Source of the DNA: Promethearchaeota archaeon
GTDB lineage: Archaea; Asgardarchaeota; Lokiarchaeia; Sigyniarchaeales; SOKP01
Direction: 5' to 3'
Assembly (NCBI GenBank): GCA_016839745.1
Contig: JAEOTS010000184.1
Coordinates: 1 to 14,059, forward strand
Length of the DNA stretch: 14,059 nt
Part shown: positions 9,314 through 14,059 of the stretch, piece by piece
Position numbering within the stretch: the stretch's first letter is position 1
How the letters are laid out: each line of letters begins with the position of its first letter
Made by a program: the position numbers and the translations under genes
Notes under the pieces: model-generated
Database searches by the model: none
Told to the model about the DNA's origin: nothing
What the model saw: the letters and a program-made list of their open reading frames with translations, nothing else

Positions 9314-11605
9314 ATGACTATGTACAATTGTAAATTGAAGTTAATAAAATTGATTTTTCACATACGTAATCATATTAATTTCTATTTCTTCATTATTTCT
9401 TTAATTTCTATAATTCTATTACTTTTAAAATTAATGAACCTTGATGTTGTTCTTCAGTTAGACACTAACTTACTACTTAATATTACACTACAATTTTTAT
9501 GGATGGGTTCTTCGATATTTATTATACTATTTTTACCATCTTATCCCCTCTTTTTCAAAATCTCTAAAAGCGTAAGATTCAACCTTTTAGAAAAGTTATG
9601 CTTAACCATAGTATTTAATTTGAGTTTCTATATAGTGATAGGTTATTTTGGAAATGGGTTTGACTTTGTAATTGATGCTAATTACTTTTTCATATTATTA
9701 CTAGTGTTTTATTTTTCACAAGTAGCTCTAATTTTAATGTATAAAATAAAGAATAATGGTAAAGAAACACTAAAATTTAATACCTCCTCTAAGGAATTAT
9801 TGAAAAAATACGATAATTTCTCATTTAGCACCTATTTAAAGAAGAAGCTTTCTTGGAATGGGTTGTTGCTTATAATTTTTATGATTTTATTGATATTTTC
9901 ATTACTAGCTAATGTAGGAATTTTCGGAGGTACTGATCCGTGGTATCACATTTTTATAATTAAAATAATTACAACCGCGCATTCCTTACCTCTTAACGAA
10001 TATTTCGGTGCAATGGGTTTTCACATAATAGGAGCGGTATTTCATTTCTTTTCTGGTATAGATTTAATTTTTTTTCCAAATATTTCCTTATTTTTTACTA
10101 TTCCTATAACATCTTTAATAGTATATAACATCCTGAGAAGAATCTTTGTAAATAAATCATTAGCAATTTTTGGAATATATATTTTGTTAATCTCGAGTTT
10201 AGGTTTTATTAACTTAACTTTTCAATACTGGCCATCTAGCCTTGTATTTATACAAGGATTAACTATTTTTTTTCTGCTATATACTCGATTAAAAATTTTT
10301 ATTACAAAAGATAAACCTACTTGGAGAACGGTATTATTGAGTTTACCGTTTACTTATATCTATGTTATTTTTACATTCATTGCCTTGTATCTTTCCCATT
10401 CTCTAATTGCACTAATTTTTCTAATCTCTTTTGCGTGGTTATATTTGATTTACTTAGTCAAAGATTTAATCCGCGGTTTTGATTTTGTGTTAATATCTAT
10501 TCTCTTAGTTATTTTTTTAATATTTTATGTTTCCAATGTGAGCACTGGTCATCTAGTTGTATTTGGATTTGTTCTTTTTCTACCCTGGATTTACTTATTA
10601 TTTGGTGTAATCCTAATTACTGTGATTGGAGGCATTCTAATCCTCTATTTACGAGCTCAAATTACTTTTGAAAAGGGAAGGTTTAATTTAATCCTATTAG
10701 GCAAGAAATTTAAGGTTTATACAACAATAGAGAAATTTTTTATCCCTCTTGTACTAATAATAACTTTGGTTTTTAGTTTTAGTTTTTTTATAGCAAATCT
10801 CTTGTGGCTAAATTTAAATTTAGTGACAATTTTTGTTGGTTTTGAAGTCATTGTGTTAGTCATTTTTTCTATTTGGGGTTTAGTTGTTTTTCAGAATAAA
10901 CCGAAAGGAAAACCCTTATTTCTGTGGTTATTGGGTTTTGTTTTTTTGGTTTTATTTGGGTTTCTTTCCGATGTATTTAGAGGAGATCTTAGTTTCTTTT
11001 CAAGATTATTTTATCTTAGCTCTCCAATTTTAGCAATTGGCTTTATTTCATATATATATAAATTAATTAAAATGGGAAAAATAAAATTAAGAAATGTAAA
11101 GATATTTCTTATTGTACTTATATGCTATTCTTCTACAGCTTCATACTTAGAATTTTTCTCGTCAATAGATTTCTTTAGCGTTAATAATAACGAATTAACA
11201 GCAGTGGATTGGTATCTTGATAACTCGGATAATAAAAACACACTAATATTAGAATTTGGGTGGAATCCAGTATATGTTTTTTATGATTATCCTTATGATG
11301 AAGAAAATAGTTCACTCCCATTCACAATAACACAAAATTACATTACTTTCAGCAATAATCTTATTATTCCAGATAACCACATCGATGAAAATGGAACAAA
11401 TGCTTTAGTTGAGTTAAAAGCAAGATACAATACAGATGTGTTTATATTACTCACTAAAAATTACTTAACTACAAATGAAATGGAATTTTATGGAGAATTA
11501 ACTGAAGAACAATATGAAAAGTATTACTCTTTAAATTATTTGAACAGGATTTTTTCAGTCAAGAGTGAAAATGGAAAAAGTTTACCGTATTATTGGGTTA
11601 TTTAA
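9314..11605 (+). CDS. Polytopic membrane protein, putative GT-C fold glycosyltransferase (AglB/STT3-like, lacking WWDYG), 763 aa
   Basis: Many hydrophobic segments. GGTDPWYH (9926-9949) follows a TM helix and is followed by Y...GFH. Late R-L-F-Y-L motif. A soluble C-terminal domain of about 140 aa begins ELTAVDWYLDNS. The N-terminal FLPSY...LLEKLCLTI resembles DUF1616-type segments. Confidence 0.6.
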   Translation: MTMYNCKLKLIKLIFHIRNHINFYFFIISLISIILLLLKLMNLDVVLQLDTNLLLNITLQFLWMGSSIFIILFLPSYPLFFKISKSVRFNLLEKLCLTIVFNLSFYIVIGYFGNGFDFVIDANYFFILLLVFYFSQVALILMYKIKNNGKETLKFNTSSKELLKKYDNFSFSTYLKKKLSWNGLLLIIFMILLIFSLLANVGIFGGTDPWYHIFIIKIITTAHSLPLNEYFGAMGFHIIGAVFHFFSGIDLIFFPNISLFFTIPITSLIVYNILRRIFVNKSLAIFGIYILLISSLGFINLTFQYWPSSLVFIQGLTIFFLLYTRLKIFITKDKPTWRTVLLSLPFTYIYVIFTFIALYLSHSLIALIFLISFAWLYLIYLVKDLIRGFDFVLISILLVIFLIFYVSNVSTGHLVVFGFVLFLPWIYLLFGVILITVIGGILILYLRAQITFEKGRFNLILLGKKFKVYTTIEKFFIPLVLIITLVFSFSFFIANLLWLNLNLVTIFVGFEVIVLVIFSIWGLVVFQNKPKGKPLFLWLLGFVFLVLFGFLSDVFRGDLSFFSRLFYLSSPILAIGFISYIYKLIKMGKIKLRNVKIFLIVLICYSSTASYLEFFSSIDFFSVNNNELTAVDWYLDNSDNKNTLILEFGWNPVYVFYDYPYDEENSSLPFTITQNYITFSNNLIIPDNHIDENGTNALVELKARYNTDVFILLTKNYLTTNEMEFYGELTEEQYEKYYSLNYLNRIFSVKSENGKSLPYYWVI

Positions 11606-12386
11606 AGATTTCGTATCTTCCGGGAAAGAGATTATCTATTTTATCTTTTAAAATATTTTTTTTATTACCCTCAATTTTAAAAATTTTCGGTAGTTTACCT
11701 ACTTGCCCAATTTTATTATCTCGAGATATAAAAGCCCCGTAGACCCCCTCAATATCTTCGGCGGCATCTAAGGCATTTTTAATAGATTTTTCTACATCAA
11801 ATCCTTTAACTAAATTTGCTATTCTTGTAGCAGCACAATCTGCTAAAGTTGCATTTTTTGCAAATATAGTTACTGCATCGGCTTGTCCCAAACTAATTGC
11901 ATGCCCTATCGTAGCAGAGCTGGTTCCAATTCCAATAGGGCAATTTCTTTTTTCAATCATGAAACCAATATTCAAATTGAGTTCATTTAATCCAGCATAT
12001 AACGCGATCTTCATATTTTCTTCCGAATCAACAGCGATTTCGCCACCATTTTCAACTAAAGCAATTTTTGCAGGAATAAAATCCTTCTTATCTCCTCCTT
12101 TCATAACATTTAACATAATATCGGCAAATGCGCCTGCTACAGCTGCCATTGGACCGACATCACATATAACTGATGCTTCACTCATTAAATTTATAATCTC
12201 AAATTCAGTTTTGATTTTAATAGGTGAAAAAGAGGTGAGGAATTTGTTATTTTTTTTTATAAATTTTTCTAAAATTAAACGATTATTAAGTAGACTTTCT
12301 TTAGCTTTTATAATGGCTGTTTTTGACTCTGAAATTAAAGTGATATCCGATTCTTTTTCTAAAAATTGATATTTATATATTTTCAT
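11598..12386 (-). CDS. UPF0280 family protein (ApbE-like superfamily), 262 aa
   Basis: VGPMAAVAGA, VENGGEI, TSSATIGHAISLGQADAVT, ADCAATRIAN. Its 3' end overlaps the membrane-protein gene convergently by 8 bp. Confidence 0.9.
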   Translation of the reverse strand: MKIYKYQFLEKESDITLISESKTAIIKAKESLLNNRLILEKFIKKNNKFLTSFSPIKIKTEFEIINLMSEASVICDVGPMAAVAGAFADIMLNVMKGGDKKDFIPAKIALVENGGEIAVDSEENMKIALYAGLNELNLNIGFMIEKRNCPIGIGTSSATIGHAISLGQADAVTIFAKNATLADCAATRIANLVKGFDVEKSIKNALDAAEDIEGVYGAFISRDNKIGQVGKLPKIFKIEGNKKNILKDKIDNLFPGRYEIFK

Positions 12387-12469: not shown

Positions 12470-12958
12470 ATGAAGCAAATTAACTACGACGAAATCATCT
12501 CACAACTGAAAGTTGAGCTAAATTCTGAATGTGCGATTGCAAATATATATGGAATTGTCTTAGCTTCCAACATTAAAGAATTTTCTAAAGGAAAGATTAT
12601 TCCCCATAAAATTCTTTCTCTTATTGGAAGTTCAAAAGATATTGCGGACGAATTAAAATTAAATAAAATAAATTCTTTTGCTTTAGAAGCTCAAGAGTAC
12701 AATTATTTATTTACTTTCAGTGGAGAGTTAATTTTAATCTCTAAATTAGGCTTGAGTATGAATTTAGCTAAATATATGCCATCTATTTCAGTCTTTTTAA
12801 AGAAGTTGAGTGAAAAACATAAAAAACAAGAAGTTAGTGAGTTTTCAGTTTTTGATTTTTCAAAAGAAATTCAGAAAATTAAAGAGACTTTTCAAGATAA
12901 TAAAAGGAAAGACGACAAGTATTCTATAATTAAGGATCTTGTAAAATACATCGCGTAA
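12470..12958 (+). CDS. Roadblock/LC7 (MglB/LAMTOR-like) domain protein with a C-terminal extension of about 45 aa, 162 aa
   Basis: alpha-beta-beta-alpha-beta-beta-beta-alpha pattern: YDEIISQLKVEL / CAIAN / YGIVLASN / KILSLIGSSKDIADEL / INSFALEA / YNYLFTF / LILISKL / NLAKYMPSISVFLKKL. Lies directly upstream of a small GTPase. Confidence 0.7.
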   Translation: MKQINYDEIISQLKVELNSECAIANIYGIVLASNIKEFSKGKIIPHKILSLIGSSKDIADELKLNKINSFALEAQEYNYLFTFSGELILISKLGLSMNLAKYMPSISVFLKKLSEKHKKQEVSEFSVFDFSKEIQKIKETFQDNKRKDDKYSIIKDLVKYIA

Positions 12959-13000: not shown

Positions 13001-13006
13001 GGTGAT
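13001..13006 (+). promoter_or_regulatory. Archaeal Shine-Dalgarno-like GGTGAT upstream of the GTPase gene
   Basis: GGTGAT (part of the archaeal GGAGGTGA consensus) lies 5 nt before an in-frame ATA at 13012. Confidence 0.55.
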
Positions 13007-13011
13007 ATGTT

Positions 13012-14059
13012 ATATTAAGACAGGTTTACATATATAAGGGCGGTAAACTACTTTATTATCGGCATTTCGGAAAGGCGCTTAAGAAAGCGGCTTTCGATGC
13101 ATTAGTTGGGGATTTAATGAAAGATGCCTTTGCTAAAGGAGGAAAAAAAGTAGAATATCACGATTATTATAAATACAGAATATCCTATATTACGGAAAAA
13201 GATCAAGAATTGATGTTTTTATTTGTAACTGGGTTAACGGATAATTTTGAAAACATTAAGAAAGAATTAATTAAATGCAAAAAAGAGTTTTTAAATTTTT
13301 TTGAAGATATTCTCCAACACAAGTTTGACGCTAAGACATTTGAGATTTTCGATCCTACCATCGATTCAACCCATAGAAATTTAAGACCTAAAATTTCCCT
13401 AGTAGGTTTTTCGGGTGTTGGAAAAACTACAATAACACGCTTAATTAAAGCTGAAGAAATCCCAATGGAACATATACCGACTATAACAGGAGACATAGCT
13501 ACAATTAGAATAGGGAAATTGCATTTTCATTTGTGGGATTTTGCAGGTCAAGAGCAGTTCAGTTATTTGTGGAACAACTTTATCAAGGGAAGTGATGCTG
13601 TTTTATTGATCACTGACTCTACTTTAGAAAATGTCGAAAAAAGTAAATTTTTCTTGGAACTTATAAAAGAACAAGCTGCTCAAGCTCACACATCGGTTAT
13701 TGGTAATAAACAAGACCTAGACGATGCTATGAAGCCTGAGCAAATCGAAAAAATCTTAGGTCTAAAAACATATTCTATGGTCGCAAAAGATTCCGGGAAC
13801 CGAGATAAAATGATAACTATTATTGCAGACATACTAGAAATGAGTGCAGAAGTTTCACCTTTATTGCAACCATTATTGGAACGAGATACATATACAGAGA
13901 AAGCCGTAAAAGCGTTGGAAGCTGCAAGATTTGATGAAGCTGCATTGTATTTTGAGAAAATCAGTGATTTGTGTATAGAACTAGGAGATGATTCACTTGG
14001 TAAAGAATTTTATGAAAAATCTCAAAAAATAAAAACTATGATCCAACAAACGAAAACTA
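13012..14059 (+). CDS. Longin-domain / Arf-like small GTPase / helical-tail fusion protein, 3'-partial (at least 349 aa; not in the ORF track)
   Basis: Manual translation shows an open frame from after TGA 13003-13005 to the window end: ILRQVYIYKGGKLLYYRHFGK...RPKISLVGFSGVGKTT (G1, 13405-13428)...HIPTIT (G2)...LWDFAGQEQFSYLW (G3, W at 13534)...DAVLLITDS...GNKQDL (G4, N at 13705)...SMVAK (G5-like)...EAALYFEKISDLCIELGDDSLGKEFYEKSQKI. Confidence 0.9.
   Translation, partial: MLRQVYIYKGGKLLYYRHFGKALKKAAFDALVGDLMKDAFAKGGKKVEYHDYYKYRISYITEKDQELMFLFVTGLTDNFENIKKELIKCKKEFLNFFEDILQHKFDAKTFEIFDPTIDSTHRNLRPKISLVGFSGVGKTTITRLIKAEEIPMEHIPTITGDIATIRIGKLHFHLWDFAGQEQFSYLWNNFIKGSDAVLLITDSTLENVEKSKFFLELIKEQAAQAHTSVIGNKQDLDDAMKPEQIEKILGLKTYSMVAKDSGNRDKMITIIADILEMSAEVSPLLQPLLERDTYTEKAVKALEAARFDEAALYFEKISDLCIELGDDSLGKEFYEKSQKIKTMIQQTKT

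Follow-up and report, generated by a model that had tools for sequence, protein, structure and literature searches.

The stretch of DNA analysed here (the window) is the whole of a 14,059-bp contig (JAEOTS010000184.1; contig C173 in our numbering) from the genome of a Promethearchaeota archaeon (GCA_016839745.1; 3.5 Mb, 89% complete, ~28% G+C). On its forward strand lies a gene fragment of 349 codons (13012-14058), the 3′ end of which is cut by the contig end. It encodes a longin domain (residues 1-124, 13012-13383), a small-GTPase (G) domain (residues 125-277, 13384-13842) and a three-helix, TPR-like region (residues 286-348, 13867-14055), recognised respectively from the fold of AlphaFold2 models, from Pfam, PDB sequence and Foldseek matches together with motifs, and from modelled helices and family conservation. 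Directly upstream on the same strand is a gene for a protein of 162 amino acids (aa) (12470-12958), divergent and roadblock/LC7-like, which is a probable partner of the GTPase by conserved linkage and hhalign comparison. The longin-GTPase gene is real, and what the window carries is its 5′ half, the full gene coding for a long signalling GTPase of Lokiarchaeia-type Asgard archaea.

Reading frame and start codon

The gene lies in frame 1, where an in-frame TGA (13003-13005) is followed by an open frame to the final base of the contig, the last codon ending at 14058; translation from 13012 yields 349 residues. The initial annotation had placed here, from 13012 to 13830, a gene missed by the open reading frame (ORF) track. 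The existence of that gene is confirmed by the open frame from ATA 13012, with its >1200 homologues, but its range is not, as 13830 falls just short of the end of the G domain and the frame stays open to 14058. The ORF track overlooked the gene because no ATG, GTG or TTG occurs in this frame before 13117 (M36), the start being an ATA, and because the ORF leaves the contig.

By sequence comparison, translation starts at the near-cognate codon ATA 13012-13014, a placement based on the alignment of start codons, on the conservation of residues 2-35 and on the lack of conservation of an out-of-frame ATG at 13007. When the 5′ ends of 20 loci were aligned, the codon for residue 1 was ATA, ATT or ATC in 14 of the 15 same-genus genomes, one same-genus orthologue having ATG, and was ATG or GTG in five loci with 46-50% identity in the N-terminal domain (four from other families and one short same-genus paralogue). 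A Shine-Dalgarno-like GGTGAT is found at 13001-13006. Same-genus loci carry GGTGA 5-7 nt before the aligned start, the TGA inside this motif being an in-frame stop two codons ahead of the start; in 14 of these loci no more than 6 nt of open frame precede the start. Residues 2-35 are conserved as protein in 19 relatives, with synonymous codon changes and with L2, R3, V5, I7, G20, K21, L23 and F28 invariant, and residues 1-35 supply β1, β2 and half of α1 of the longin fold. A minus-one shift from the mini-ORF ATG-TTA-TAT-TAA at 13007 was rejected, its ATG being missing in relatives.

Near-cognate starts were also counted across the genome, in long ORFs whose first 20 codons include no canonical start. 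Within the opening five codons of these ORFs, 12.6% of ATA, ATT and ATC are preceded by a Shine-Dalgarno-like site, against ~1.5% for the similarly common control codons AAT and TTT, which suggests that near-cognate starts are a habit of the lineage. Such preceded ATT, ATA or ATC codons are thus ~8x enriched over the control codons at the 5′ ends of these ORFs (e.g. contigs C20, minus strand, 33409; C125, plus strand, 39933; and C191, plus strand, 1827; and 13012 in the window). Since the start is ATA, ATT or ATC, gene callers drop the first 35 residues of the longin-GTPase (two strands and half a helix), and other genes with such near-cognate starts will be truncated in the same manner.

The N-terminal longin domain

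AlphaFold2, supplied with a 63-sequence alignment, gave a model of all 349 residues with a mean predicted local distance difference test (pLDDT) of 85.8 and a predicted template modelling score (pTM) of 0.76. Residues 1-124 were also folded alone, because the G domain fills the hit lists of fold searches with the whole model, and reached pLDDT 91.1 and pTM 0.85. The modelled elements are strands 4-9 and 12-18, helix 25-41 (25-42 with the domain folded alone), strands 48-52, 55-62 and 67-74 and helices 79-97 and 107-124 (107-123 with the domain folded alone), followed by β1 of the G domain at 127, and the strand and helix segments listed from the letters in the initial annotation coincide with them one for one. 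Their order, β-β-α-β-β-β-α-α, with two C-terminal helices and no N-terminal helix, is that of a longin domain, and the whole domain superposed better on solved longin domains than on roadblock domains. According to these models, the N-terminus is a true longin fold. A roadblock fold was rejected, as it scored lower and matched only in part, and in a control the alignment of the longin family reached a profile-profile probability of just 0.5% against the roadblock profile.

An exhaustive search with residues 1-122 against 1.8 billion representative proteins retrieved only 89 clusters. Except in a few short fragments, the matches start at or near residue 1 of the protein, and full-length matches are about 350-750 aa long, the size of this family. 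The domain is thus confined to the N-terminus of the GTPase family and is a divergent, family-private longin. Within it D77 is invariant and R3 nearly so, and K21 does not vary among close orthologues. A search of this genome with the profile PF13774 found no match.

The G domain

The longin domain is followed directly, with a join of two residues, by a complete G domain, as had been proposed from the letters. All five motifs are present: G1 GFSGVGKT (residues 132-139, 13405-13428), G2 T157 (13480-13482), G3 DFAGQ (residues 176-180, 13537-13551), G4 NKQD (residues 232-235, 13705-13716) and G5 VAK (residues 257-259, 13780-13788). Across 63 family sequences G132, G137, K138, T140, T157, D176, G179, Q180, N232-D235 and A258 are invariant, as is A178 within G3. 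Judged by these motifs, the domain is a complete Ras-superfamily small GTPase, catalytically complete and with the catalytic Gln180 kept.

The best Pfam match to the G domain is Arf (PF00025; 79.6 bits, cut-off 22.3), ahead of Roc (60.5), Ras (54.8) and Gtr1_RagA (25.5, cut-off 22). Arf and Arl proteins account for all of the 60 top PDB sequence matches, and the phmmer alignment to Arl1 (1r4a_A) shows no gap between IPTI and the strand that follows switch II, i.e. with the switch and interswitch spacing of Arf. Foldseek on the model returned Arl1, Arl8b and Arf6 at a template modelling (TM) score of about 0.8, and 8oum_B, an Asgard ArfR/AArf structure, at TM 0.76; in a VIA structure comparison Rab6 scored 21.3 and Arf6 20.4.

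The genome as a whole has at least 58 small-GTPase loci matching the Arf profile at E <= 1e-8, of which ~24 start more than 100 residues into open frames. This suggests, as far as profile positions go, that many GTPases of this genome exist as fused forms.

Family and full-length architecture

A protein search returned >1200 homologues, far more than chance would give, and identity reaches 87-93% in the best of them (E ~1e-196). All homologues with a name derive from metagenome-assembled genomes of Asgard archaea (Promethearchaeota, Loki-, Thor-, Heimdall-, Hod- and Hermodarchaeota), the usual database names being ‘ADP-ribosylation factor-like protein’ and ‘GTP-binding protein’. A match at E <= 1e-40 was found in 26 of 31 related genomes and nearly always spanned residues 1-349. 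The region after the G domain is conserved across the family alignments and was modelled as helices 286-303, 307-323 and 327-348 at pLDDT about 90.

Complete same-genus orthologues have 617-720 aa, and the window therefore carries 349 of about 685 residues. Beyond the part seen here the orthologues continue with an extended linker that is rich in Pro and of low complexity, followed by the short, conserved motif LKLNPEDFMV, and they end in a coiled coil. Five related contigs (L001, L002, L004, L013 and L017) end inside the Pro-rich linker of the orthologous gene and a sixth (L003) has a run of N there. The linker is a repeat-driven assembly gap and the source of many ‘partial’ database entries, and because related contigs break in the same place the truncation in the window is an effect of assembly and does not mark a pseudogene. 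In the orthologue at L016:1498-3498 (plus strand), the coiled coil (residues 597-666) matches PF18822, the CdvA-like coiled-coil domain, weakly and below threshold (E 0.005), which is probably a resemblance between coiled coils only.

A paralogue of 494 aa in this genome (L066:323-1804, minus strand; contig C5) shares the layout of MLRQ-longin, G domain and helices, and its start is an ordinary ATG. In its G3, DFEL stands in place of DxxG, and from this motif it is probably a pseudo-GTPase.

The upstream gene

The 162-aa gene ends 53 nt upstream of the GTPase and stands directly upstream of it in 18 of 18 orthologous loci, including those of other families at 28-34% identity. Only the short paralogue and the two longin-fused paralogues found in this genome (the C5 protein being one of them) lack it as a neighbour. 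An hhalign comparison of the upstream family with 12 Robl_LC7 proteins of this genome gave a probability of 87.7% (E 3.4e-6) and aligned columns 21-115 to columns 25-120, a total of 95 columns covering the whole roadblock core; a weak Atlas lead also runs from the upstream protein to Robl_LC7. The protein carries a C-terminal extension of 45 residues. That it might be a copy of the longin domain was considered and rejected (hhalign probability 0.3%). From the conserved linkage and the roadblock profile match, we therefore take the unit to consist of a roadblock-like gene and a longin-GTPase gene.

Two further genes of the window lie upstream. A 262-aa gene without a clear family (11598-12386, minus strand) is a conserved neighbour of the roadblock/GTPase pair in same-genus loci; two loci of another family have it too, on the opposite strand. 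A 763-aa ORF (9314-11605, plus strand), with no Pfam match at E <= 0.1, is found beside two GT2 glycosyltransferases and sugar epimerases; the initial annotation had singled it out as AglB/STT3-like.

Proposed mechanism and alternatives

The best explanation, to which we give a probability of about 60%, is a conserved Lokiarchaeia-type small GTPase made of a longin, an ArfL-type G domain and a helical hairpin, regulated in cis by a longin/roadblock platform. The pTM of the whole model suggests a fixed arrangement of the three domains relative to one another. Longin and roadblock domains are known to dimerise and to build platforms that bind and regulate small GTPases (summarised in PMC10933270), the examples being MglB-MglA, Ragulator-Rag, TRAPP, Mon1-Ccz1, the FLCN-type GTPase-activating proteins (GAPs) and SRX-SRβ. 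By analogy with these, the attached G domain would have its nucleotide state or its partner binding controlled by the fused longin, most likely in a pair with the roadblock-like protein. The Pro-rich, disordered arm and the coiled coil (~200-300 residues, outside the window) may serve oligomerisation or tethering, and the weak near-cognate start may keep expression low.

Several points weigh against this explanation. The N-terminal domain of the window protein has no Pfam (E <= 0.1) or NCBIfam match; Pfam searches with 36 family members yielded only two sub-threshold longin matches (Fuz_longin_1, E 0.017; and Longin, E 0.025); and the family profile of the domain drew only noise, with nothing relevant, from the PDB sequences. 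The longin identity claimed in the initial annotation thus stands as a fold, in the models and by superposition, and finds no echo among longin sequence profiles. Neither the upstream 162-aa protein nor any member of its family has a Pfam match, and its probable roadblock-like nature is argued from one profile-profile match. Model confidence is lowest at switch I (residues 150-160; pLDDT about 60), and the model therefore gives no stabilising contact there. Control of the attached G domain by the longin in cis is argued by analogy, and placement of the G domain in the ArfL group from the literature and a within-genome tree.

A more specific proposal pairs the longin with the roadblock-like protein in a heterodimer that would serve as a platform acting on the attached G domain. 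The two genes would then make up a self-contained archaeal counterpart to the longin/roadblock platforms that act in eukaryotes as guanine nucleotide exchange factors or GAPs (Ragulator-Rag, TRAPP, Mon1-Ccz1, FLCN-type), with expression throttled by the AUA/AUU start. We advance it tentatively, as a possibility that is itself less probable than not.

Two other arrangements are each somewhat less probable again. In the first, the longin would be an intramolecular lid that docks on its own switch I/II in the GTP state, as in SRX-SRβ, and would need no roadblock partner. The two domains are separate chains in the receptor of the signal recognition particle, where SRX belongs to SRα, whereas here they are fused. 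The SRPRB profile has no match to the G domain at E <= 0.1, VAMP7, Sec22, synbindin and AP subunits match the N-terminal domain as well as or better than SRX does, SRX being no closer to it than longins of the SNARE or adaptor type, and the conserved upstream partner points instead to a two-protein unit. We accordingly consider a lid of this kind rather unlikely. In the second arrangement, which we regard as no more probable, the longin and the C-terminal coiled coil would make the GTPase a homodimer, in the manner of the C-terminal roadblock domains of Rag, and the upstream gene would supply an MglB-type GAP in trans. No result here separates a homodimer from a heterodimer. Rag/Gtr proteins with Ragulator do share with this system the combination of a small GTPase with roadblock/longin-type domains and partners, but Rag has a C-terminal roadblock and other G motifs, whereas the longin here is N-terminal. 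The Gtr1_RagA score is marginal against its cut-off and far below that of Arf, and the C-terminal half of the orthologues consists of the helical hairpin, a disordered linker and the coiled coil; the protein therefore does not have the make-up of a Rag/Gtr GTPase.

It is improbable that the protein is a genuine member of the Arf family (the ArfR/AArf clade) and so a direct relative of eukaryotic Arf, Sar and SRβ. The top Pfam, PDB sequence and Foldseek matches are all Arf; the WD before G3, the NKQD and the Arf-length interswitch are present, WD motif, interswitch length and G fold being shared with the Asgard ArfR/AArf proteins (GerdArfR1 and HodArfR1; 8OUM/8OUN); and some AArfs have longin N-termini, according to PMC11914678. 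The same source lists as specific to Arf a GLDxxGKT in G1, a DxGGQ in G3 and an amphipathic N-terminal helix. These are features of ArfR, but the protein described here has none of the three: GFSGVGKT replaces the first, DFAGQ the second, and the 124-residue longin domain occupies the place where the helix would be, as the initial annotation had supposed. GLD or GID is found in G1 of 12 other GTPases of this genome. One of its proteins, of 298 aa (L036:1489-2382, plus strand; contig C84), is a genuine ArfR-type GTPase with GLDSAGKT and with GerdArfR1 (8OUN/8OUM) as its best PDB matches; it has a short basic N-terminus and a ~130-aa C-terminal extension that appears roadblock-like by eye. This protein scores 121.8 bits with Arf against 48 with Ras, a margin of 74 bits, compared with just 19-25 bits for the longin-GTPase. 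Furthermore, a preprint (bioRxiv 10.1101/2024.02.28.582541) reports AArf/ArfR proteins chiefly for Heimdall-, Gerd- and Hodarchaeales and gives just one ArfR for Lokiarchaeum GC14_75.

A maximum-likelihood tree of 55 G domains, all from this genome, comprises 13 Arf-signature sequences, 36 Ras-like ones and a six-member clan that holds the longin-GTPase (support 95 in the Shimodaira-Hasegawa-like approximate likelihood ratio test, SH-aLRT), which thus falls outside the Arf-signature clan. Other members of its clan are the two longin-fused paralogues (contigs C5 and C19) along with a pair of short GTPases that stand alone and carry NKQD. The Arf-signature clan and this clan are jointly split from the 36 Ras-like sequences (support 93), and joining the two was not rejected by the approximately unbiased test (p 0.45), a point in favour of Arf membership. 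Taken with the literature, the within-genome tree makes it probable that the G domain belongs to the Asgard-only ArfL group; its named homologues are confined to Asgard archaea and it is fused to a longin. The label ‘Arf-like’ given in the initial annotation accordingly applies only loosely: the best matches are to Arf, and not to Roc, but the G1 and G3 signatures and the helix are missing and the domain lies outside the Arf-signature clan. What that annotation had observed (the frame, the secondary-structure pattern and the presence of a G domain) was sound, and its interpretation was so in part.

Finally, a true start at ATG 13117 with the preceding 35 codons untranslated, or a broken pseudogene, is extremely improbable: no ATG, GTG or TTG lies between the stop at 13003 and 13117 and the ORF has no stop inside the window, but residues 2-35 are protein-conserved and build part of the longin fold, other families place ATG or GTG at the exact position of the ATA codon, and the 3′ end is absent because the contig ends.

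Relation to known systems and significance

Longin-GTPase fusions of Lokiarchaeota had been cited in the initial annotation as already reported, correctly so: they were published in 2016, modelled in 2024 (PMC10933270) and mentioned in 2025 (PMC11914678). Five longin domains are given as fused to lokiarchaeal Arf-like GTPases in PMC4917890, which cites Klinger et al. (2016) for the ArfL group, and 26 of 74 GTPases of MK-D1 are combined with roadblock or longin domains, a Rag/Arf-like class being fused to either (Tran et al., 2024, PMC10933270). The present family shares with these ArfL and MK-D1 fusions its restriction to Asgard archaea, the N-terminal longin, the Arf-like annotation and the many paralogues per genome, and probably belongs among them. 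The passages on such fusions in PMC4917890 and PMC10933270 on which we draw make no mention of a long Pro-rich arm, a coiled coil, a conserved roadblock-like neighbour or an ATA/ATT/ATC start. Tran et al. (PMC10933270) state that in MK-D1 the GTPase genes do not, as a rule, share operons with genes for roadblock or longin proteins.

The closest parallel in gene order is MglB-MglA of Myxococcus and Thermus, where a roadblock-type gene adjoins a small-GTPase gene and the roadblock/longin fold forms a platform for the GTPase. Unlike MglA, the GTPase here has its own longin and a long tail, its G domain is not MglA-like, and its partner, a divergent roadblock, does not reach the threshold of Pfam.

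A conserved regulator-GTPase gene pair and a near-cognate start are useful details and not surprises, the kind of fusion being already known. ‘Arf-like’ names in the databases do not imply Arf-family membership for Lokiarchaeial proteins. Small GTPases with longin and roadblock regulators organise the membranes of eukaryotes, and their Asgard relatives are used to reason on the origin of eukaryotes. According to PMC10933270, gene order does not allow Asgard GTPases to be matched to their regulators, a difficulty that recurs. The longin-GTPase family is an exception: its G domain has one regulator-type fold in the same chain and another regulator-type gene always adjacent, and so the family offers a defined pair for biochemistry.
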